Shown one piece after another: positions 91-63,057 of a DNA stretch of 64,000 nt; within the stretch, counting starts at the first letter, position 1; each line of letters begins with the position of its first letter. The stretch lies in the NCBI GenBank assembly GCA_018221045.1, contig JAAOXT010000017.1, positions 6,356 to 70,355 of the forward strand, written 5' to 3'. The DNA is from Nanobdellota archaeon. GTDB taxonomy: Archaea; Nanobdellota; Nanobdellia; JAAOXT01. A program made the translations under genes and the position numbers. The notes under the pieces are model-generated. The model was not told the origin of the DNA. It was given only the letters and a program-made list of their open reading frames with translations, and searched no databases.

Positions 91-573
91 TTACTGCTCT
101 GGCCTCTCACCTTGGTAAAAACCGTTATAAGAATGACCAGATTTCTCGCACTCAAAACCCGCAAGCTGAAACCACGCCTCATCCCTGTGCACGCGAAGCT
201 TAAAAGGCAAGAGCACGCTCTGCGTGAAAAAACCTGTATAACCACTATCGCAAACAGCGCTCTCCACTTTAACGCATCCCAAACGATTAAAAGTTGACCT
301 GGGCTTAACGTACAAAACCACGCCTTCAGGAATGCTTATCTTCACGTCTGAGCGCAATTCATAAAAACCGGGTTCTAGCTCGTAAAAATCGTTCAATGGC
401 TTGATTAATTGTTTGGGTTTTGATAACTCCCTCTTTTTGCCGTGCACGAGTATCTCAGACCCTTCTTGGACTCGCCAGACCTCCGACACGCCGACGTCAA
501 CACCGTTAGGCCCGACCTTTTTCGTCTTGCCTTGAATAATGAATTTAGAAATCGTTTCCCCTGATAAATGCAT
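91..573 (-). CDS. dCTP deaminase/dUTPase family protein
   Basis: 160 aa. Carries the conserved 'VCDSGYTGF' motif of the Dcd/Dut beta-barrel family. Its size is closer to dUTPase than to dCTP deaminase. Confidence 0.7.
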   Translation of the reverse strand: MHLSGETISKFIIQGKTKKVGPNGVDVGVSEVWRVQEGSEILVHGKKRELSKPKQLIKPLNDFYELEPGFYELRSDVKISIPEGVVLYVKPRSTFNRLGCVKVESAVCDSGYTGFFTQSVLLPFKLRVHRDEAWFQLAGFECEKSGHSYNGFYQGERPEQ

Positions 574-2100: not shown

Positions 2101-2244
2101 TGCGGGGGACGGGATTCGAACCCGCGAAGACACTAAGTCACAGGGTTTCTTCCAAAACCAGTTTTTCCGTCAACGCTTTTGGAGCGTTAGCGAGAAAAGG
2201 GTTGGTCTTAAGCCCTGCCCCTTTGACCACTTGGGAACCCCCGC
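2101..2244 (-). tRNA. tRNA-Leu(UAA) with an intron of about 60 nt at the canonical 37/38 position
   Basis: Hand-folded on the minus strand. The acceptor GCGGGGG pairs with CCCCCGC, and the discriminator is A. The T-arm is GCGGG-TTCGAAT-CCCGT. The long class-II variable arm is TGACTTAGTGTCTTC. The anticodon stem CAGGG/CCCTG carries the loop CUUAAG|intron|A, giving anticodon UAA. Confidence 0.8.
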
Positions 2245-5214: not shown

Positions 5215-6345
5215 ATGAATAAACAGCTTCCGGAAATGAAGGTTGAATTGTTAGGTTACTCGATGATGGGTTTGGCGGGGCCTGATGAGATAATCGCGAC
5301 AATCAAACAATTGGAAACTAATGACAGACTTGAAACAATTGACTCCGAATTAGTCAAAGGATTAGTGGATGGTATTGAGTCAAGGGATAAGATTCTTGAC
5401 GGCGTCGCGTTCACTTTCGGGATTGAAAACATTAGCCGAGTCTCTGAAATTCATGAAATCAGGCATCGCACGGCTTCTTATTCCATTCAATCAGGCAGGT
5501 ACGTGGACAGGACGGGCAAAGTCGGGGTCATGCCCGACACCATTAAAAACGATGATGAAGCGCAGAAACTTGTTGAAGAAGCGGAAACAGACTCTTTATA
5601 CTCCAAACTATTGAAATTAGGTATTCCAGAGCAGGACGCGCGATATTACTCCTTCCAAAACACGCCAACATACATTGTTCAGACCATGACTGCGCGCTCA
5701 CTATTACACTTCTTCAAGGAAAGACTTTGCAACAAAGCCCAAGACGAGATTCACGGATTAGCTCTCAAAAAACTTGACCTGGCGAGTCAAGTCGCGCCGT
5801 TGCTGATGAGCAAAGCAGGTCCTCACTGCAAGGGTAAAGGTTGCAGGCAAAGAAAATCTTGCGAACCGGAAAAAAGAGAAGAATTGTTTAGAACTATTGA
5901 CCAATATTTCGAGCCTGAAATCAAGCCAAAAGTTTTCAGGGTTCCTGAAGGCCCTTTACTGGCTTACACTCGCTTAACAGCTGACTTTTTAGCCAGTCCT
6001 GAAGTGTTATGCGCTGCCGCCGGCAAAGGATGTTATTCTTCAAAACCTGCCGGAGAGATAATCCAGGATTACTTGGGTGGCGAGCCGTACAAAAAAACTT
6101 TGAAAACAATTGTCGTGTCTGGTCATGAAAGTGTTATCGAACACGCACACTTCGCTTTCGAGATTGATGTGGAAGAATTCTTGGATAACCCTCCCTGGAT
6201 TCACTCTTATGACAAAAAAGCAGGGGTTGTTTTCTTGAACGCTAGGAGCGTTAACGAGTACTTAGAATCTAACCCTGGAAAACGCACGAGTCAAATCATT
6301 GAAAGAGAAGTGAAGAGAATTGCTCCAAGACTTCTTAGAAAGTGA
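5215..6345 (+). CDS. thyX: FAD-dependent thymidylate synthase ThyX, atypical long form with a C-terminal partial second ThyX domain
   Basis: The ThyX signature 'RHRTASYSIQSGRY' (RHRxxSxxxxSxR) and the helix 'TARSLLHFFKERL' lie in residues 1-210. Residues about 295-350 carry 'SGHESVIEHAHFAFEI' and 'LNARSVNEYL', the ThyX N-terminal HExxEH-FTF motif. Confidence 0.75.
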   Translation: MNKQLPEMKVELLGYSMMGLAGPDEIIATIKQLETNDRLETIDSELVKGLVDGIESRDKILDGVAFTFGIENISRVSEIHEIRHRTASYSIQSGRYVDRTGKVGVMPDTIKNDDEAQKLVEEAETDSLYSKLLKLGIPEQDARYYSFQNTPTYIVQTMTARSLLHFFKERLCNKAQDEIHGLALKKLDLASQVAPLLMSKAGPHCKGKGCRQRKSCEPEKREELFRTIDQYFEPEIKPKVFRVPEGPLLAYTRLTADFLASPEVLCAAAGKGCYSSKPAGEIIQDYLGGEPYKKTLKTIVVSGHESVIEHAHFAFEIDVEEFLDNPPWIHSYDKKAGVVFLNARSVNEYLESNPGKRTSQIIEREVKRIAPRLLRK

Positions 6346-6982
6346 TTAAGTGATCGTAGTTTTTTTGGATGATTGCTTGTTTTATTTCAATTGCCGGCTC
6401 GTCCGCCATTAGCACTTTTACCAAGTCGCTTTTGTCAATTTTGGATTTTATTTTTTCTTTTTCAATAATCTTGAATCCGACGCCGAACTCTTTTGAGTAG
6501 TCCCTAATCTCGTTGGATACCGTGCCTAAAACAGTGTGTTCTTGTCCGAGCAGTGTTATTTCATGACGGGCTTGAAGTATTTCTTCTGGTTCAAGATTTG
6601 ATGCAGTGAAATAGCGAATGCCTTCAACACTGAAGTTGGGATTACTGAAAATCATTTCGTTAAATAGTTTGATTAAAAGTTTTTGAGCGGAGAACAGGGA
6701 AGGGTTTGTGTAAAACATTTCTGCTTCGAGAACGCTTTCGACTTTGCAGTCGAAGAACGTGAATGATGCTCTGTCTTCAACTCTTATTTTATCTCTTTCT
6801 CCTTCAATTTTTTGGAATTCTATTTTTGGCCGGTTGTGAGTCGTGTAGGGAAAATTGTTTACGAGTCTGTTCCTAAAATCAAACAATCTTTTCGCGTATT
6901 CTTCTGACCCAGGATATTTTCTCAAGTCAAATCTTTCTGGCAAGTAGGAACCTTGTTCGAGTCGAGCGAATACTAACCTCAT
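6335..6982 (-). CDS. hypothetical protein
   Basis: 215-aa ORF with no recognisable motif. Confidence 0.4.
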   Translation of the reverse strand: MRLVFARLEQGSYLPERFDLRKYPGSEEYAKRLFDFRNRLVNNFPYTTHNRPKIEFQKIEGERDKIRVEDRASFTFFDCKVESVLEAEMFYTNPSLFSAQKLLIKLFNEMIFSNPNFSVEGIRYFTASNLEPEEILQARHEITLLGQEHTVLGTVSNEIRDYSKEFGVGFKIIEKEKIKSKIDKSDLVKVLMADEPAIEIKQAIIQKNYDHLITF

Positions 6983-10012: not shown

Positions 10013-10498
10013 ATGAAAGAACATAAAAGGCCGGGCTGGGATGAGTACTTTATGGGCATTGTTCGAGAAGTTGCTAAGCGAGCCACCTGTGACCGCGGAA
10101 GGAACTCTGCAATAATCGTGAAGAACAAGCGAATCATCGCTACTGGTTATGTCGGCGCCCCCGTAGGTTTAAACCATTGTGATGAAGTTGGGCACTTGAT
10201 TAAAGAGGTTTACGACGAGGACGGCAACGTTAAGAAACATTGTGTTCGCACCACCCACGCGGAGCAGAACGCTATTGCTCAAGCAGCGAGGTTCGGGGTG
10301 AGCATTGATGGAGGCACGATTTATACTAAAATGGAACCCTGCTTGGACTGCACCAAACTCTTAATCAACGCGGGGATTAAAAGGGTGGTGGCTGAGAAGC
10401 TCTATCACGACGGAGAGTTAAGTAGACGGTTCTTAAAGGACGCAGGAGTCAAGCTAGTAGTGTTGAACGAAGAAGTGGAGGAGTACAAAGAACAGTAA
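10013..10498 (+). CDS. dCMP deaminase (cytidine/deoxycytidylate deaminase zinc-binding family)
   Basis: Zinc ligand motifs 'HAEQNAI' and 'PCLDCTKLLINAGIKRVV'. Confidence 0.8.
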   Translation: MKEHKRPGWDEYFMGIVREVAKRATCDRGRNSAIIVKNKRIIATGYVGAPVGLNHCDEVGHLIKEVYDEDGNVKKHCVRTTHAEQNAIAQAARFGVSIDGGTIYTKMEPCLDCTKLLINAGIKRVVAEKLYHDGELSRRFLKDAGVKLVVLNEEVEEYKEQ

Positions 10499-30932: not shown

Positions 30933-31003
30933 GGCGAGGTGGCAGAGTGGCTATGCGACGGGTTGCAGACCCGTTTATGCGGGTTCAATTCCCGTCCTCG
31001 CCT
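30933..31003 (+). tRNA. tRNA-Cys(GCA)
   Basis: Hand-folded. The acceptor GGCGAGG pairs with CCTCGCC, and the discriminator is U, as expected for tRNA-Cys. The anticodon stem ACGGG/CCCGT carries the loop UUGCAGA, giving anticodon GCA. The T-arm is GCGGG-TTCAATT-CCCGT. There is no intron and no encoded CCA. Confidence 0.85.
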
Positions 31004-31008
31004 TTAAA

Positions 31009-32403
31009 ATGAAATTGTATAACACGCGTACCAGAAAAAAACAGGTCTTCAAACCCATCGATAAAGATAAGGTTAGAATGTATTGTTGCGGGCCCACTGT
31101 TTACGATTACGCTCACATCGGCAATTTTCGCACTTTCCTATTCGAAGACTTCCTTCGCAGAGCGTTAAAGCGAAACGGTTACGAACTAATACACGTAATG
31201 AACATCACTGACGTCGGACACCTAACCAGCGACGCGGACGAAGGTGAAGACAAGCTGATGAAGGCTTTGAAACGAGAAGGAAAAAAACCCAGTGTCAAAG
31301 CAATGCTCGAACTCGCTGAATACTACACTAAAGCGTTCTTCAAAGACTCCTCGCTCTTAAACATTGAAAAACCCGAAGCGGTTCCGAAAGCGACCGAGCA
31401 CATCGAAGAAATGGTGGAGCTCAACAAAAAAATTGAGAAGAATGGTTACGCTTACAAAACTTCTGTAGGATTAATTTTTGACACGGGAAAGTTCAAAGAC
31501 TACGCCAAATTTGGTAAGCTCAACCTAAAAGCGCAGAAAGCAGGGGCAAGGGTTAAGGTTGATGAAGAGCGCAAGAAACCATGGGATTTCGCGCTGTGGA
31601 TCACGAACCAGCCCAGCCACATCATGCAATGGCAGTCCCCTTGGGGCAAGGGCTTCCCAGGATGGCACTTGGAATGCAGTGCCATGAGCATCAAGTACTT
31701 AGGAGAACAGTTTGACATTCACTGCGGAGGAGAAGACCACATCAAAGTTCACCACACTAACGAGATTGCTCAATCAGAAGCCGCGACCGGGAAGAAGCCT
31801 TGGGTTAGATTCTGGTTGCACGGCGCGTTCTTAATCATGCAAAAAGACAAGATGAGCAAAAGCGCGGGAAGTTTCGTTAAGATTCAAGATTTGGTTGACA
31901 AAGGTTTTGACCCGCTGGCTTACAGGTATTTGTGCCTCACAGCTAATTACCGCTCCAAGCTCTCTTTCTCGTGGAAAGTTCTGGAAAACGCTCAGAAATC
32001 TCTTAACAGTTTCCGAAGCAAGATTAAGCATTTAAACGAGCTGAACGAGCTGGACAAGAACAATAAGAGGAAATACGCTAAAAAGTTTGATGAACGCGTT
32101 AACAATGATTTGGATTTGCCTAGCGCGCTAGCTTTAGCGTGGAGTGTCGTAAAAGCCAAAGACCTTGGGAGCAAAGAAAAAGTAGAATTGTTATTGGATT
32201 TTGACCAGATATTCGGTTTAAAACTCGCGGAATCTTTGAAAAAGGATGAGGCGCCCAAAAAAGTTTTAAAACTCATAAAAGAAAGAGAAGAAGCAAGAAA
32301 GAAGAAGGATTGGGTTGCTGCTGACGCCCTGCGAGACAAGATTAAAAGTTTGGGATGGAAGGTTCAAGACTCGCGGGAAGGCCCTAAACTCGAAAAAGTT
32401 TAG
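31009..32403 (+). CDS. cysS: cysteinyl-tRNA synthetase
   Basis: 'YCCGPTVYDYAHIGNFRT' is the class-I HIGH region and 'KMSKSAG' is the KMSKS motif. The true start is the ATG at 31009. The track ORF 30931.. merely translates the upstream tRNA-Cys. Confidence 0.9.
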   Translation: MKLYNTRTRKKQVFKPIDKDKVRMYCCGPTVYDYAHIGNFRTFLFEDFLRRALKRNGYELIHVMNITDVGHLTSDADEGEDKLMKALKREGKKPSVKAMLELAEYYTKAFFKDSSLLNIEKPEAVPKATEHIEEMVELNKKIEKNGYAYKTSVGLIFDTGKFKDYAKFGKLNLKAQKAGARVKVDEERKKPWDFALWITNQPSHIMQWQSPWGKGFPGWHLECSAMSIKYLGEQFDIHCGGEDHIKVHHTNEIAQSEAATGKKPWVRFWLHGAFLIMQKDKMSKSAGSFVKIQDLVDKGFDPLAYRYLCLTANYRSKLSFSWKVLENAQKSLNSFRSKIKHLNELNELDKNNKRKYAKKFDERVNNDLDLPSALALAWSVVKAKDLGSKEKVELLLDFDQIFGLKLAESLKKDEAPKKVLKLIKEREEARKKKDWVAADALRDKIKSLGWKVQDSREGPKLEKV

Positions 32404-48394: not shown

Positions 48395-49051
48395 TTATTG
48401 TTTTTTTTTAGTTATTTCTAAACTTAAATTCTTAGCGAATTTTTGATTATGAAATGATTTAAGAACTGCGAAACCTTCGTTCTTCAACTGAGTCTTAAGT
48501 TCCTTAAGCGAAAATAAGTGATAATACCTCTTATAAACCTTTCCTTCGTGCTTCCAGCCCACGTAAAACACTTTTTTCCCAGGATATTCTGAAAAACGGG
48601 GTTGCTCAGGGTTCCAAGCCATCACCAGGCTTCTAGACTTTTTTTTCAGCACTCGCTTAACCTCTTTCCAAGGTGGTTTCTTGAAATGGTTCATCACTGA
48701 AATCATTAAAGCTCCTTTGAAAGAATCGTTTTTGAACGGCAGTGCCTGAAGGTCCGCGACTATCACCAAGTCATGTTTTTGTTTGGCCAATAAGGCCATT
48801 TGCTTTGAGAAGTCAATTGCAACGAACTTGTATTTTTTGAGTGCTGGAAAGTTTCTTCCGCTACCGCAACCCAAATCAATGAACCATTGTTTGGTCCTGA
48901 ACGTTTTAACGAATTCCTTGACTTCTGGCAAGGGGTTGGTTCTAAAAACGTTCCAAGCACTCGCTATAGCGTCGTAAACAGGTCTAAGGTCTTGCATGTG
49001 AACACTTTTTTGACATTGATTTGTTATAAAATCTTTCATTATAACAAACAT
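48395..49051 (-). CDS. class I SAM-dependent methyltransferase
   Basis: SAM-binding motif I 'FIDLGCGSGRN' and motif II 'DLVIVADLQ' are present. Confidence 0.7.
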   Translation of the reverse strand: MFVIMKDFITNQCQKSVHMQDLRPVYDAIASAWNVFRTNPLPEVKEFVKTFRTKQWFIDLGCGSGRNFPALKKYKFVAIDFSKQMALLAKQKHDLVIVADLQALPFKNDSFKGALMISVMNHFKKPPWKEVKRVLKKKSRSLVMAWNPEQPRFSEYPGKKVFYVGWKHEGKVYKRYYHLFSLKELKTQLKNEGFAVLKSFHNQKFAKNLSLEITKKKQ

Positions 49052-49081
49052 TTTTTAATCATGTGTCTCTTGGTTAAGCTC

Positions 49082-51550
49082 ATGAGGTTTTACGCTGATT
49101 TTCACTTGCACTCCAAGTACAGTCGGGCCTGCTCTCATGTCATGGACATTCCTCATCTCGTAAAGTACGGGAAGATGAAGGGATTGAACCTTTACGGAAC
49201 TGGTGACTTCACGCACCCGCAATGGTTTGAGCATTTGAAGGAAACACTGCAAGGCGGGGAAAACGGCATTTACGAAAGGGATGGCGTTAAGTTCGTGGTT
49301 AGCGGAGAAATCTCGCTCATTTACTCCCAAGGAGGTAAGGTTAGAAAAAATCATTTGCTAGTCATTCTTCCCTCGCTTGGCGCGGCAAGCCAAGTTAGGG
49401 ACATGCTCGGAAAAATAGGGAATTTGAAAGCTGATGGCCGACCGATTCTCGGCATGAACTCAATAGACTTCACTGAGAAAATCATTGAACTCGTGCCTGA
49501 CGCCATGATAGTGCCGGCACACTGTCTACCTGACTCGGAAAACATACTTACTGATATAGGTGTTCAATCAATAAAAAAAATAAGTAAAGGAAATAAAGTA
49601 CTATCTCACTCAGGGAGATTTCGTAAAGTTATTGACGTGTTTAAGAGAAAATATACAGGAAAATTAAAACACATAATCCCGTTCTATTTCACAATAGGCG
49701 TAAAGACTACTCCTGAACACCCTTTCTTAGCTATCAAGACTTATAAAAAATGTTCGTGGACGAAAGGCACCTGTAGAGAAAAGTGTTCTAAACTTAAAGA
49801 GTGCAAGAACAAATATTATTTAGAATACAAACCAGAATGGATCCCTTGCAAAGAATTAGAGGTTGGAGATGTCATTCTCTTTCCCAGAATTACGAAGATA
49901 AAGGATAAAAAAATAATTAAAATAAGTGATACCTCTCCAGGCATTGTAAAAAATGATAAAATAAGATTAGATAATTCAAATGCAAAATCAATAAATAATG
50001 TCATACGCGTTGATACTGATTTCTGTAGGTTTATCGGGTATTTCTTAGCAGAAGGCTCTATAATGAAAGACGGCATTTCATTAACGTTTAGTGCTAAAGA
50101 AAAAGAATACATCAAAGACGTTGAATTATTAATAAAGAAAATTTTCGGGATTGAAATAAATAAAAAACGAATTAAAGGAAATAGTTGTGAAATAATTATT
50201 TTCTCTAAAGTTTTAAAAAAATTTTTACACAAATTACTTTACAAAAATGGGCAAAAATCACCTAATAAAAGTTTACCTCATGAATTAATCCTTTTACCCT
50301 ATAATAAAATAAAACAAATTTTTCTCGGCTGGTGGCGGGGCGATAAAGGATATACCTCCTCAAGGGAACTAGCTAATGCTATGAAACTTATCTGCCTAAA
50401 ATTAGGTATAATACCTTCCATTAGAATTGACACAGCAGAAGCTCACACGAAAAGAGGCAATCACTTGTTTGAAGGAAGAATTATTGAAGCAAAACAGGAT
50501 TCACTGTATTTTAGTAACCTTTCTTTTCACGAAGAGTCACTAGATTTATTAGAAGAACCAATATTCCAAAAATTCAAAACAAAAAGAAACACGCGACACG
50601 GTTGGGTTGACACTAATCATGTTTACTTGCCAATACTTAAGATACAAGACGAAGATTTCAATGGATTTGTCTACAACCTAGAAGTGGAAAAAGATAACTC
50701 TTATTGTAGCGAATTTGCTTGTGTTCATAACTGCTGGACGCCATGGTTTAGCATGTTCGGGAGCATGAGCGGGTTTGACTCCATGAAAGATTGTTTTCAG
50801 GACCAGTTGAAGCACGTTTTCGCCGTGGAGACCGGGTTAAGCTCGGACCCTGCGATGAACTGGCGAGTCAAACAACTCGACAACATGACGTTACTCTCAA
50901 ATTCGGATGCTCATAGTCCTTGGCCTCACCGGGTTGGCAGGGAAGCCAACGTTTTCGATTTCAAAGACTTGACTTATCAATCGTTATACAACGCTATTAA
51001 GCGCAAAGACCGTGAAAAGTTTTTGTTCACTATCGAGACAGACCCTGCTTACGGCAAGTATCATTGGGACGGGCACAGAGGTTGCGGCGTGTCAATGCCC
51101 CCCGCCGAGTCTAAGAAGTTGAATAAGATTTGCCCGAAGTGTCATTCCAGATTAACTATCGGGGTGGAGCATAGGGTTGAAGAGTTGGCGGACCGTCCGG
51201 AGGGCTTCAAGCTTGAAGGAGCAATTCCTTTCAGAAATTTACTGCCTTTGGCGGAAATCATTTCCAAAGCGATAGGTAAAGGCGTGGGCACGAAAACTGT
51301 TTGGAGTGCTTACGAGAAAGCTGTTCGCGAACTAGGAGTGGAGTACGGGATACTGTTAGATGTTCCGGAGAATGAGTTGTCTAAGGTTTTGGGTGATGAT
51401 GTGGCAAAAGCGGTTTTGATGGTTCGCGAGAACAAAGTTCAAATCAAGCCGGGTTTTGATGGGGTTTATGGGGAAGCTGATTTCGGACAAAAACACGAGA
51501 AAACTGTTCCTTCAAAACCCGTGCAGAAAGGGTTAAACACCTGGCTCTAA
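49082..51550 (+). CDS. PHP-domain nuclease (EndoQ-like, TIGR00375-type) interrupted by an intein. The exteins are 49082-49522 and 50732-51550.
   Basis: The extein start 'MRFYADFHLHSKYSRACS' is the PHP metal-binding motif. The C-terminal 'KICPKCHSRL' is a zinc ribbon. The exteins total about 420 aa, matching EndoQ-type proteins. The track ORF begins further upstream, but the ATG at 49082 (or 49061) is the plausible start. Confidence 0.65.
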   Translation: MRFYADFHLHSKYSRACSHVMDIPHLVKYGKMKGLNLYGTGDFTHPQWFEHLKETLQGGENGIYERDGVKFVVSGEISLIYSQGGKVRKNHLLVILPSLGAASQVRDMLGKIGNLKADGRPILGMNSIDFTEKIIELVPDAMIVPAHCLPDSENILTDIGVQSIKKISKGNKVLSHSGRFRKVIDVFKRKYTGKLKHIIPFYFTIGVKTTPEHPFLAIKTYKKCSWTKGTCREKCSKLKECKNKYYLEYKPEWIPCKELEVGDVILFPRITKIKDKKIIKISDTSPGIVKNDKIRLDNSNAKSINNVIRVDTDFCRFIGYFLAEGSIMKDGISLTFSAKEKEYIKDVELLIKKIFGIEINKKRIKGNSCEIIIFSKVLKKFLHKLLYKNGQKSPNKSLPHELILLPYNKIKQIFLGWWRGDKGYTSSRELANAMKLICLKLGIIPSIRIDTAEAHTKRGNHLFEGRIIEAKQDSLYFSNLSFHEESLDLLEEPIFQKFKTKRNTRHGWVDTNHVYLPILKIQDEDFNGFVYNLEVEKDNSYCSEFACVHNCWTPWFSMFGSMSGFDSMKDCFQDQLKHVFAVETGLSSDPAMNWRVKQLDNMTLLSNSDAHSPWPHRVGREANVFDFKDLTYQSLYNAIKRKDREKFLFTIETDPAYGKYHWDGHRGCGVSMPPAESKKLNKICPKCHSRLTIGVEHRVEELADRPEGFKLEGAIPFRNLLPLAEIISKAIGKGVGTKTVWSAYEKAVRELGVEYGILLDVPENELSKVLGDDVAKAVLMVRENKVQIKPGFDGVYGEADFGQKHEKTVPSKPVQKGLNTWL
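49523..50731 (+). mobile_element. intein (403 aa) with a LAGLIDADG homing endonuclease domain
   Basis: It starts 'CLPDSENI' (block A). 'TPEHPF' is block B. The LAGLIDADG motifs are 'FIGYFLAEGS' and 'LGWWRGDKGY'. It ends 'FACVHN', followed by extein 'CWTPWF' (block G His-Asn plus a +1 Cys). GC is about 30%, versus about 45% in the flanking exteins. Confidence 0.85.
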
Positions 51551-52806
51551 AAAAATTTTTTCAATGTTTGGTCGAGTTCTTGCAGTGCTTCCTCTCCCTT
51601 AACGTTCAAATCGTGTTTCAGGCATTGGGTTAACGGGATTCCGAGTTCTTCGCACGCTTTTTTGAGGGCTTGCCAGCTCTCGCTCTTAGGCTTGAAATAA
51701 CCGAAAACTTTTTCGTACTTGTGAGCTGAAAGATAGTTTTTCACTCTTTGTTTGATTACTTTGATGTACGATTTCTTGACCGCTGGCGTTTCTTCTTTTT
51801 CAGGCCAGTCGTAAGAATTGAAAGGGTAATGGTCAGCGAACTCCTCAGGTACCACGCCAGGATTTGAAATAGCGATTAAGTGTAAGTCCCTATACTTGCG
51901 AGTAACTCGCTTGATTGCCCTCCAGGTTCGGGAATGCGTGTAAGGCTTTTTGTAAGCGCACGGAACGAACAACGCGTAAGTTTTTGGTGGCTCGTACAAG
52001 CGCACGAGATAGTCTTGCCATACTTTAAAGTGCGGGTGCAACAACTGTTTTTTTGTAGCTCCAACAATTTTTTGCTTGGCTGGCTCGGGGAATCGGGGTT
52101 TAAAATCAAAATTCGAGAAATCCGTTTGAATTTTTTTGTTTTTAGTGAATGGTTTGACCAACTCTTCGAATTCTCTCTTGTTGAGGGGTTTCCACTCCCC
52201 TTTAAGCCATAATTCGTTAATTGGGGCGTTGGCGTGCGGAAAAGTGTTTATGAGCACGATTTCGTCGGCGTGTTTGTCAGCAAATTCCACGCTTTTTTTC
52301 AGGCTTTTTTCAACGTTTTTGGCGAATGGAGGGTTGACCAAGATGTAAACCTTAACTCCTGCACCCCACTTCCTGAGAACGCGCGCTGCGCGCAAAAAGT
52401 CCTTGTTCGTGAAACCTTTAGCTAATCTCTTTCTAAGCGCGTCATCACTGGTTTCCAAACCCGTGGCTACAGTGAGTTTCAGGCCTTTGAACAAATCCAG
52501 TTTTTCCTTGGTTATGAATTCTGGTCGGGACTCAACAGTAATTTTCTTCACTCCTTTCTCCTTAACCAGTTTCACCAAGTACTTGAGAATCTTATCAGAG
52601 AACTGTTTCTCATCTAGGACTGAGCCTGAAGCAAATATTTTGACGTGCTTGCACGGCGTGTTCAGCGCTTTGTCTAAAGCGTTCTTGACGCCGTGAATGT
52701 CTACTTTTGATTCTAGTCTTCCCCAACCGCAGAAAACGCATTTTCCCCAGGAGCATTTGCCTGATGAGAGAATTAACGTTTTTTCACTCGTGTTTTTTGA
52801 CTTCAT
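51547..52806 (-). CDS. archaeal TIGR01210-like putative radical-SAM-related protein (RaSEA-like)
   Basis: The N-terminal cysteine cluster 'SGKCSWGKCVFCGWG' (Cx4Cx2C) is followed by TIM-barrel-like and C-terminal regions. It resembles archaeosine-pathway partner proteins, but the assignment is tentative. Confidence 0.4.
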   Translation of the reverse strand: MKSKNTSEKTLILSSGKCSWGKCVFCGWGRLESKVDIHGVKNALDKALNTPCKHVKIFASGSVLDEKQFSDKILKYLVKLVKEKGVKKITVESRPEFITKEKLDLFKGLKLTVATGLETSDDALRKRLAKGFTNKDFLRAARVLRKWGAGVKVYILVNPPFAKNVEKSLKKSVEFADKHADEIVLINTFPHANAPINELWLKGEWKPLNKREFEELVKPFTKNKKIQTDFSNFDFKPRFPEPAKQKIVGATKKQLLHPHFKVWQDYLVRLYEPPKTYALFVPCAYKKPYTHSRTWRAIKRVTRKYRDLHLIAISNPGVVPEEFADHYPFNSYDWPEKEETPAVKKSYIKVIKQRVKNYLSAHKYEKVFGYFKPKSESWQALKKACEELGIPLTQCLKHDLNVKGEEALQELDQTLKKFF

Positions 52807-61395: not shown

Positions 61396-63057
61396 ATGAT
61401 ACTCCTCGAATTGAAAGCCCGGGACGCTGGTGGCAGGATTTGCAAAGCCATAATAAATGGTAAAGAATTGGAGACTCCTGCGTTCTTACCCGTTATTAAC
61501 CCGAGAATTGACACGATTCCCGTTAAAGAATTGAAGGAGTTGGGCGTTCAAGCCTTGATAACTAATGCTTATTTCTTGTTGAAAAATCATGAGGACGAAC
61601 TGAAAAAGGGGGTTCACGACTTCTTAGGTTTTGACGGTGTAGTAATGCTGGACAGCGGAGCTTTCCAATTGATGCGTTACGGCAGCGTGAACGTCACGAA
61701 CCGTAAAATCATTGAGTTCCAGAAGAAGATTAAGCCAGACATTGGAGTAATCCTTGATGTGCCGGTAGCAAAACCTTCTCGAGAGGATTTCGAGCACGGG
61801 GTTAAAGAAACTTTAAAGCGCGCCAAGGAATGGAAAAAATTGGGTAAAGGAAGCGTTAACTGGGCTGGACCAGTGCATGGAGGTCCTTATGAAGACTTGT
61901 TGAAAAAAAGTGCTGTGCAAATGAGCAAGCTCGGCTTCGACATGTATTGTGTGGGCTCGCTCGTCCCAGCCATGGAAGAATATGATTTCAAGAGGATGGT
62001 TGACCAAGTTATAACCGCTAAAAAGAATTTGCCGTCCAACGTTCTGGTCCACGCTTTCGGCGCCGGACACCCCATGGTAATGCCCTTACTCGCCCTGCTC
62101 GGAATCGACTTGTTTGATTCCGCGAGTTACGCCATATTCGCCAAGGAAAATAGGTACATAACTGAAAGAGGAACTATTAAACTGAAGGATTTGCGAGAAT
62201 TTCCCTGCAACTGCCCTTCCTGCTTCAACAAGAAGCCTGAAGACTTAAAAGAGCCGGGTTTAGCGAGGCATAACTTGTATGTTATCTTGGCGGAGGTTCG
62301 CAGGATTAAACAAGCAATCCACACTGGAAGGTTGTGGGAACTCGTGCTGGAAAGAGCCATGGTTCACCCTGCTTTGCTGGAAGCCACCAAGCATGTCTTG
62401 GAAAATCATTACGAATACTTTTTGGATAAGGACCCTTTGACCAAGCGAAAAGCTTTCTTTTACGCTGGAGAGGTTTCGAGCTACAGGCCAGCCATCGTCA
62501 GAGCTAGCCAAAAATTTCCTGGCCAAGTGCCTTCAGCTTTAAGGATTGTTTATCCTTTCGGCCAGTTTGAAGGAGAACAAGTGTTCGATTTTGATGACGA
62601 GTTGTACACCGAACTGGAAACTTTGCGTTTAATAGGGGATTATTGGTTCGGCAAAAGTGCAGGAAAAAAATTGTTTCCCAAAAAGTGTTGGATAAAGTAC
62701 ACTCGAACTGGCAGGATTCACCAAGTCTTTCTAAATGAAGATTTGTTAGGAGTGCTTAGGACGAGTGACGGGTACTTCGCTCTGCACAGGGCGGGCGCGT
62801 TGAGGTTGAAGACTAAATTGAAGAAAGTTGTTGTCAAAAAAGACGCAGAATCCTTCGTGCTGGAGGGCAGGAACGCGTTGGCTAGGTTCGTGAAAAAAGT
62901 TGGTAAAGGGGTTTTGCCAGGGGATAGCGTGCTGGTCACGAATTCTCGCGGCAAATTTTTGGGGGTGGGTGAAGCCCTGCTTAACAGCGAGGAAATGCTG
63001 GAATTCAACTACGGGAACGCTGTCAAAGTCAGGGAAGGTTTTGAGAAACCTGTGTGA
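61396..63057 (+). CDS. tRNA-guanine transglycosylase family protein with a C-terminal PUA domain (archaeosine pathway, TgtA/ArcS-like)
   Basis: A TGT TIM barrel is present, with the zinc site 'CNCPSCF...H'. The C-terminal PUA-like region is 'GDSVLVTNSRGKFLGVGEAL'. The protein is 553 aa. Confidence 0.7.
   Translation: MILLELKARDAGGRICKAIINGKELETPAFLPVINPRIDTIPVKELKELGVQALITNAYFLLKNHEDELKKGVHDFLGFDGVVMLDSGAFQLMRYGSVNVTNRKIIEFQKKIKPDIGVILDVPVAKPSREDFEHGVKETLKRAKEWKKLGKGSVNWAGPVHGGPYEDLLKKSAVQMSKLGFDMYCVGSLVPAMEEYDFKRMVDQVITAKKNLPSNVLVHAFGAGHPMVMPLLALLGIDLFDSASYAIFAKENRYITERGTIKLKDLREFPCNCPSCFNKKPEDLKEPGLARHNLYVILAEVRRIKQAIHTGRLWELVLERAMVHPALLEATKHVLENHYEYFLDKDPLTKRKAFFYAGEVSSYRPAIVRASQKFPGQVPSALRIVYPFGQFEGEQVFDFDDELYTELETLRLIGDYWFGKSAGKKLFPKKCWIKYTRTGRIHQVFLNEDLLGVLRTSDGYFALHRAGALRLKTKLKKVVVKKDAESFVLEGRNALARFVKKVGKGVLPGDSVLVTNSRGKFLGVGEALLNSEEMLEFNYGNAVKVREGFEKPV

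Follow-up and report, generated by a model that had tools for sequence, protein, structure and literature searches.

An endonuclease Q gene from a Nanobdellota archaeon is probably interrupted by a LAGLIDADG intein of the 'Mja hyp1' family

The DNA analysed here, referred to as the window, is a 64,000 nucleotide (nt) stretch from a Nanobdellota archaeon (contig JAAOXT010000017.1, positions 6,356 to 70,355, forward strand). An open reading frame at window positions 49082–51550 (plus strand) probably encodes an endonuclease Q (EndoQ) that is interrupted by a mobile class-1 intein of the family named 'Mja hyp1'. We give this reading a probability of about 0.8; the splicing, the DNA cleavage and the inactivity of the precursor that form part of it are predicted properties. 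EndoQ enzymes are Zn-dependent nucleases with a PHP domain; they nick DNA on the 5′ side of deaminated or abasic bases.

The frame is unbroken and translates into a precursor of 822 amino acids (aa). The insert consists of precursor residues 148–550 (nt 49523–50731), is 403 aa long and in frame at both ends, and is missing from every close intein-free homologue compared. These coordinates and residues had been given in a first-pass annotation of the window, and translation showed them to be exact. The two exteins together are 419 aa. An alternative in-frame ATG is found at 49061; the homologue P0001 and the NCBI protein MBR9678192.1 begin at 49082. The window protein is 100% identical to MBR9678192.1, which is labelled 'hypothetical protein [Nanoarchaeota archaeon]'.

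Motifs and predicted fold of the intein

The insert (49523–50731, plus strand) shows the organisation of a class-1 intein, with a Hint domain split by a LAGLIDADG endonuclease. Intein Cys1 is encoded at 49523–49525 and block B, T63-P-E-H66-P (a TxxH motif), at 49709–49723. In inteins, block B helps with the N-S acyl shift that takes place at the N-terminal splice junction, and Asn cyclisation releases the intein. The endonuclease domain covers approximately intein positions 160–310 (50000–50452), limits that are approximate and taken from the secondary structure of the model. It carries two motifs, GYFLAEGSI with the putative catalytic Glu177 (50036–50062) and GWWRGDKGY with the putative catalytic Asp274 (50327–50353). 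Blocks F and G, GFVYNLEVEKDNSYCSEFACVHN, are situated at 50663–50731 and end in His402-Asn403; the VHN-C junction lies at 50723–50734, and the +1 Cys, which begins the sequence CWTPWF, starts at 50732. Every hallmark claimed by the first-pass annotation (Cys1, TxxH, two LAGLIDADG motifs, His-Asn and +1 Cys) is therefore located in the sequence.

The Pfam LAGLIDADG_3 domain matches the insert above its gathering score (E-value = 5.6e-11) and Intein_splicing falls just under threshold. Several NCBIfam models of intein-containing proteins match as well, and TIGR01443 (intein_Cterm) gives a weak match at intein positions 382–403. The endonuclease domain has sequence matches to the VMA inteins 7qst and 7qsu, the best with an E-value of 4e-8. 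An AlphaFold2 model of the intein, based on an alignment of 22 sequences, has a mean per-residue confidence (pLDDT) of 86.6 and a predicted template modelling score (pTM) of 0.87. In a Foldseek search with this model the best match is TliVMA (7qsu, E-value = 1.8e-21), followed by PI-PkoII, PhoVMA, PI-SceI and PI-PfuI down to 1.8e-10, all at a probability of 1.00. The free-standing endonuclease I-DmoI matches the endonuclease domain (E-value about 2e-5, template modelling score, or TM, normalised to the target of 0.53–0.60), and the secondary structure of the model over residues 165–303 fits the pseudo-dimeric alpha-beta-beta-alpha-beta-beta-alpha fold. The identification as a LAGLIDADG intein is borne out by these Pfam, NCBIfam, VMA-intein and structural matches, which support a class-1 intein with a two-motif LAGLIDADG homing endonuclease, predicted to splice and to cleave. 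A motif scan of all 70 open reading frames of the window flagged the EndoQ gene only, with no other intein found.

The host gene

The spliced extein sequence aligns with the EndoQ of Pyrococcus furiosus (PfuEndoQ, 5zb8_A) with an E-value of 4.3e-72 and 39% identity over 377 columns, covering residues 5–398 (phmmer against the PDB); the PfuEndoQ structure 7K30 is likewise matched. The N-extein (aa 1–147, 49082–49522, plus strand), delimited by the same search and by residue mapping, forms the first half of the PHP domain. It contains the sequence DFHLHSKYS, with His8 and His10, followed by Glu76, His91 (approximately Pfu His84) and His147, the equivalent of the Zn ligand Pfu His139. His147 is the final residue of the N-extein and directly precedes the intein. 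The C-extein (272 aa and the stop codon, 50732–51550, plus strand) matches positions 135–373 of the TIGR00375 profile with 180.9 bits and aligns to PfuEndoQ through residue 398 of the latter. It displays the +1 Cys (50732–50734), Thr150, an ETGL pocket loop, N204/D206/H208 in the sequence SNSDAH, a probable His/Cys3 Zn-binding segment (51074–51142, plus strand) and a C-terminal helical domain. The first-pass annotation had described exteins of about 420 aa with a C-terminal zinc ribbon; the size holds, and the ribbon consists of a His and three Cys.

The metal ligands of PfuEndoQ are His8, His10, Glu76, His84, His139 and Asp193, plus His195, and the H139A mutant, which lacks the Zn ligand His139, is nearly inactive (PMC5961232). 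The lesion pocket is formed by Thr142, Glu167, Gly169, Leu170 and Asn191, with Leu168 giving main-chain atoms (PMC5961232). In the spliced protein aligned to PfuEndoQ the PHP ligands His8, His10, Glu76, His147, Asp206 and His208 are kept. The pocket residues Thr150, Glu180, Gly182, Leu183 and Asn204 are kept as well, and a Thr is found at the position of Pfu Leu168.

Thousands of extein homologues of about 400–450 aa carry the Pfam model PF27218, and the 120 best matches are all of about this length. PF27218 is also present in the precomputed Pfam matches of a 96% identical precursor (P0144). The Pfam library searched with the window extein did not include PF27218, and the search gave a sub-threshold PHP_C match. 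As judged from the alignments, the full-length homology to the solved EndoQ is unambiguous and identifies the host as a PHP nuclease of the EndoQ/TIGR00375 type. The host assignment of the first-pass annotation, an EndoQ-type PHP nuclease, is thus upheld by the PfuEndoQ alignment and the retained ligands.

Insertion site and empty allele

The intein is inserted between His147 (Pfu His139) and the +1 Cys, three residues before the equivalent of Pfu Thr142 of the lesion pocket. Such active-site positions are typical for inteins. An insertion in the conserved active-site segment had been proposed, and the alignment places it directly after the Pfu His139 equivalent. With the intein in place, the Zn ligand His147 is cut off from the other catalytic and pocket residues, so that the unspliced precursor is presumably inactive.

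The nearest intein-free homologue (P0001) is a 413 aa protein with 71% identity, encoded on a 38-kb contig (L001) that is syntenic with the window. The gene order shared by the window and L001 is S28e, L7Ae, NTP-transferase, class-I aminoacyl-tRNA synthetase, RNase J-like, methyltransferase and EndoQ, and then radical-SAM/DUF5591, thioredoxin, TrmB and Glu dehydrogenase. In a BLASTN alignment of the window with L001, the first block ends at window position 49522 and the next begins at about 50735; on the L001 side only three bases lie between them. The gap is a clean 1209 bp that corresponds exactly to 49523–50731, and the empty site reads PAH-V-WTPWF. The DNA of the empty site is ...CCCGCGCAC|GTTTGGACGCCGTGGTTC... 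(L001, region 6430–6460).

Allelic inteins in other genomes

A scan of one genome per species of the GTDB, with allelic inteins only as query, gave matches in at least 96 species genomes. Of the 80 that were kept and examined, 75 have both junctions, PAH|C and HN|CWTPW, with inteins of 345–441 aa. Inteins at the same site, for which the first-pass annotation had proposed a search, are therefore abundant. The archaeal host labels are Nanoarchaeota, Woesearchaeota, Micrarchaeota, Aenigmatarchaeota, Pacearchaeota and Altarchaeum. Among the bacterial labels are many Patescibacteria, including a complete Nealsonbacteria chromosome, as well as Omnitrophota and further groups. A query with the intein only also found partial EndoQ proteins whose inteins are 42–53% identical and have the same junctions. 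The whole precursor as query gave 1116 matches with an E-value of 1e-30 or better; the 120 best of these are 787–1340 aa long and intein-bearing, judging by length and by precomputed Pfam matches. The family is already present in hundreds of public genomes, and the window copy is an ordinary example of it.

The closest intein-bearing relative is a copy with 96% identity in a 'Ca. Parvarchaeota' metagenome-assembled genome (MAG; locus L003, protein P0144), an independent assembly with 95.6% nucleotide identity.

The +1 residue is Cys in 75 of 75 allelic loci. In the 110 intein-free homologues in which the motif was found, the residue at this position is Ala (48), Ile (34), Val (17), Leu (8), Cys (2) or Met (1). 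Thus the +1 Cys is present for the sake of the intein. The two intein-free homologues that read PAH-C-WTPW (P0015 and P0048) may be footprints of precise intein loss. A partial EndoQ of 539 aa (P0127) has Phe in place of intein Cys1 and QLR in place of the host HxH, and both its intein and its nuclease look degenerate.

Inteins are also found elsewhere in EndoQ. A Nitrososphaerales MAG and a Nanoarchaeota MAG (L047 and L065) show a second intein at open reading frame residues about 580–950. Its junctions, ETGLS|C and CGN|SDP, fall in the lesion-pocket loop, and the intein ends in Gly-Asn. P0195 carries another, at residues about 625–1141, with junctions SNSDAH|C and THN|SP, after the Pfu His195 equivalent. 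Judging from these predicted junctions, there are at least three intein insertion sites in EndoQ.

The name 'Mja hyp1 intein' is attached in NCBI to P0206 (TSC56165.1), which is 46% identical to the window precursor and has the junctions PAH|C and HN|CWTPW. Mja hyp1 is the InBase/Swiss-Prot name for the intein in MJ0043 of Methanocaldococcus jannaschii. The Pfam name of the EndoQ family model PF27218 is 'MJ0043_C'. From the name of P0206 and the behaviour of the TIGR00375 profile described below, we infer that the window intein belongs to the 'Mja hyp1' allelic family and that MJ0043 presumably has the same insertion site.

Conservation, composition and transfer

The residues Cys1, Thr63, His66, Glu177, Asp274, His402 and Asn403 do not vary among the 76 alleles compared, and Asp391 is present in 74 of them. 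Against L003, the ratio of nonsynonymous to synonymous divergence (omega) comes to 0.098 in the intein and 0.081 in the exteins. Selection seems to maintain splicing as well as endonuclease function. Invariant catalytic residues across the alleles and an omega near 0.1 make it probable that the intein is functional.

The GC content of the intein is 0.314 against 0.478 and 0.482 for the exteins, and GC at third codon positions (GC3) is 0.27 against 0.56. Among 62 complete alleles, 58 have an intein whose GC3 is below that of the exteins, and intein GC3 rises with host GC3 (r = 0.85, slope 0.49). Synonymous divergence (dS) from L003 is 0.171 for the intein and 0.170 for the exteins; since the two are equal, the intein predates the split of the window and L003 lineages. 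The first-pass annotation had taken the AT-richness as a sign of horizontal acquisition. The difference in composition is real but is not evidence of this, since it is a trait of the whole family and is accompanied by equal dS, and AT-richness as a date of recent transfer was rejected on the same two counts. Low GC marks the element family and is silent on when this genome acquired the intein.

Pairwise identities of inteins and of exteins are correlated (Spearman 0.45, Pearson 0.60). The pair L041 (Patescibacteria) and L048 (Ca. Altarchaeum) shows 71% intein identity and 53% extein identity, and L040 with L048 is similar. With the MAG labels and binning taken as given, such pairs point to inteins that moved between Bacteria and Archaea separately from the host gene. 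The mobility of the intein is supported by the empty syntenic L001 allele and by an intein/extein correlation that is only moderate and has outliers.

A cysteine cluster in the splicing domain

A Cys-rich insertion, C77-x6-C84-x3-C88-x5-C94, is found in the N-terminal Hint lobe after block B (49751–49804, plus strand). Cys77 is present in 72 of 76 alleles, Cys84 and Cys94 in 74 each and Cys88 in 48. The cluster also occurs in a non-allelic intein (P0133) and is absent from the related NifU inteins, which keep all splicing residues. No Pfam domain matches the cluster. The plainest guess is a Zn knuckle that aids DNA recognition or stability. A metal or redox sensor that would make splicing, and hence EndoQ activation, conditional on the state of the cell is a much less likely role and is weighed below. 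If such a sensor were real, the intein would act as a post-translational switch recruited by DPANN archaea, the Candidate Phyla Radiation and Omnitrophota, organisms with few conventional regulators.

The TIGR00375 profile

Both the C-terminal 140 aa of the intein (50306–50731) and the N-extein (49082–49522) match positions 1–134 of the TIGR00375 profile, the intein with 39.1 bits and the true N-extein with 33.8 bits. The match to the intein stops at profile position 134, and the C-extein match starts at position 135. The N-terminal part of the profile also matches an allelic intein (P0121) but does not match a related non-allelic one (P0134). It appears from these scores that the N-terminal third of TIGR00375 carries intein sequence and that the seed is misaligned there. 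The seed presumably includes MJ0043. Such contamination may cause systematic under-annotation of EndoQ, in keeping with a public record named 'hypothetical protein'.

Proposed mechanism and alternatives

In the proposed mechanism the 822 aa precursor would be translated as one chain. Cys148 (intein Cys1) would attack the His147-Cys148 bond in an N-S acyl shift helped by Thr63 and His66, and the +1 Cys551 would receive the N-extein by trans-thioesterification. Cyclisation of Asn550, helped by His549, would free the intein, and an S-N shift would then give a 419 aa EndoQ reading IVPAH-C-WTPWF across the ligated site. The freed 403 aa intein would act as a monomeric two-motif endonuclease, with Glu177 and Asp274 as catalytic residues, and cut intein-free EndoQ genes at the sequence coding for PAH|xWTPWF. 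Repair of the cut allele would copy the intein in.

Several findings sit uneasily with this reading. Pfu His84 is one residue off in the HMMER alignment (Asn90/His91), beside an alignment gap, and its equivalent is His91 once shifted by one residue. The first Zn-finger ligand is His262, followed by Cys265, Cys281 and Cys284 (spliced numbering), where PfuEndoQ has four Cys; the H-x2-C is also present in the homologues inspected, and the segment probably remains able to bind Zn. With TIGR00375 the spliced extein reaches 231.8 bits, under the NCBI curated cut-off of 326.6. Of the two extein comparisons proposed by the first-pass annotation, that with PfuEndoQ is therefore clear (E-value = 4e-72) and that with TIGR00375 is a match below its curated cut-off. 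The shortfall may be due in part to the intein signal in the model, which would depress the score. The Cys-rich insertion falls within the main low-confidence stretch of the AlphaFold2 model (block means 65, 54 and 50 over residues 71–100). Finally, the intein has co-diverged with its host gene relative to L003, and nothing indicates that homing continues in this lineage.

This last point bears on an alternative in which the intein splices but no longer homes and is inherited vertically as a passenger, its endonuclease domain being kept for folding or for some benefit to the host. The equal dS of intein and exteins against L003 indicates co-inheritance, the tracking of host GC3 suggests long residence, and the identities of inteins and exteins are positively correlated (Pearson 0.60). 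However, 76 alleles from two domains of life all keep Glu177, Asp274 and both LAGLIDADG motifs unchanged, and it is difficult to see why unless cleavage is under selection. The intein is missing from the syntenic L001 locus, and some cross-domain pairs show 71% intein against 53% extein identity. We consider the passenger unlikely. Splicing could also be conditional, with the Cys cluster together with Cys1 and the +1 Cys responding to Zn or redox state and so activating EndoQ post-translationally. Redox- and Zn-modulated splicing is known for other inteins, three of the cluster Cys are found in 95–97% of alleles and the fourth in 63%, all in the Hint domain after block B, and the cluster belongs to no known Pfam domain. 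But the cluster is peripheral and poorly modelled, might just as well serve the endonuclease as a Zn knuckle, structural or in contact with DNA, and is dispensed with by the NifU inteins, in which every splicing residue is kept; conditional splicing is accordingly given a low probability.

Genomes of DPANN archaea are reduced and contain decaying genes, and the degenerate P0127 allele, with its Phe for Cys1 and lost host HxH, is an example of decay within the family itself. A decayed, non-splicing intein that leaves EndoQ effectively a pseudogene is nevertheless highly improbable here, as the frame of 822 codons is unbroken, no splicing residue is missing, omega against L003 is 0.08–0.10 in intein and exteins, and all EndoQ metal ligands are kept. 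The sharp fall in GC from 0.48 to 0.31 exactly at the insert is what would be seen if assembly or binning had wrongly joined a foreign, AT-rich piece of DNA to the gene. Against this, the same architecture is found in the independent assembly L003, in the identical NCBI protein and in 75 other genomes at the same codon, and the insert is in frame at both ends, so that an artefact has a negligible chance of being the explanation. The reading preferred remains an EndoQ interrupted by a mobile class-1 intein.

Neighbouring genes

The first-pass annotation had seen a theme of deoxyuridine (dU) handling in the window. The genes concerned are real: a DCD-like dCTP deaminase/dUTPase (91–573, minus strand), a ThyX of 376 aa, longer than usual and with two Thy1 stretches (5215–6345, plus strand), and a dCMP deaminase (10013–10498, plus strand). 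However, they lie 39–49 kb from EndoQ among unrelated genes and form no cluster with it, with no sign of linkage or co-regulation. The neighbours of EndoQ are housekeeping genes conserved in synteny. The presence of dU genes and EndoQ in one window is treated as a coincidence of pathway and not as a cluster.

In L003 a 560-bp two-gene cassette (L003 positions 1964–2523) is situated between the methyltransferase gene and EndoQ and is missing from the window (49040–49045). It encodes an 89 aa AbrB/SpoVT-like protein and an 82 aa RelE/ParE-like protein, and by these similarities is probably a toxin-antitoxin pair.

At window positions 2101–2244 (minus strand) Rfam shows a tRNA spanning 144 nt (41 bits), for which there is no ARAGORN call; this is probably an intron-containing archaeal tRNA. 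A tRNA-Cys (GCA) at 30933–31003 (plus strand) is directly upstream of a cysteinyl-tRNA synthetase gene at 31006–32403 (plus strand; tRNA-synt_1e, E-value = 1.4e-93). A radical-SAM and DUF5591 gene at 51547–52806 (minus strand) is convergent with EndoQ, the stop codons overlapping by 4 nt. An archaeosine-type tRNA-guanine transglycosylase gene with TGT, C2 and PUA domains is found at 61396–63057 (plus strand), 9 kb from the radical-SAM/DUF5591 gene. These two genes suggest an archaeosine modification pathway.

Implications and comparison with known systems

The finding leaves the understanding of how inteins or EndoQ work unchanged. Its value lies in annotation, as the public 'hypothetical' protein MBR9678192.1 can be read as an intein-interrupted EndoQ. 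Such an enzyme would give this DPANN archaeon a way to repair deaminated bases. The position of the old 'Mja hyp1' intein is probably beside an essential Zn ligand of EndoQ. Since DPANN archaea, Patescibacteria and Omnitrophota share the intein at the same codon, it may serve as a marker of gene flow among these co-occurring ultra-small organisms. Among the papers in the library searched, none was found that discusses an EndoQ intein.

The host resembles PfuEndoQ (5ZB8, 7K30–7K33) in its three-part layout of PHP domain, probable Zn-binding segment and C-terminal helical domain. It differs in that PfuEndoQ is without an intein, has Ala after His139 and has a Cys4 Zn site.

The best structural matches to the intein are the solved inteins TliVMA (7QSU/7QSS), PhoVMA (7QST), PI-PkoII (2CW7), PI-SceI (1VDE) and PI-PfuI (1DQ3), at TM 0.5–0.63, which share its architecture of a Hint domain with a two-motif LAGLIDADG endonuclease. 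Their identity to it is 11–18%, their host genes and sites are others, and the Cys-rich insertion of the window intein is aligned to none of them. Closer in sequence, with 28–32% identity over the full intein, are inteins of NifU-like, UDP-glucose dehydrogenase-like and methyltransferase proteins (P0133–P0139), which display the same block structure and the block F NLEVE.DNSY in other hosts and at other sites. Within this group the NifU inteins have neither the Cys cluster nor a match to TIGR00375, and P0133 does have the cluster. The Mja hyp1 intein of MJ0043 shares the host family of the window intein, but the window copy is found in a MAG of a DPANN archaeon (Nanoarchaeota) and not in a methanogen.

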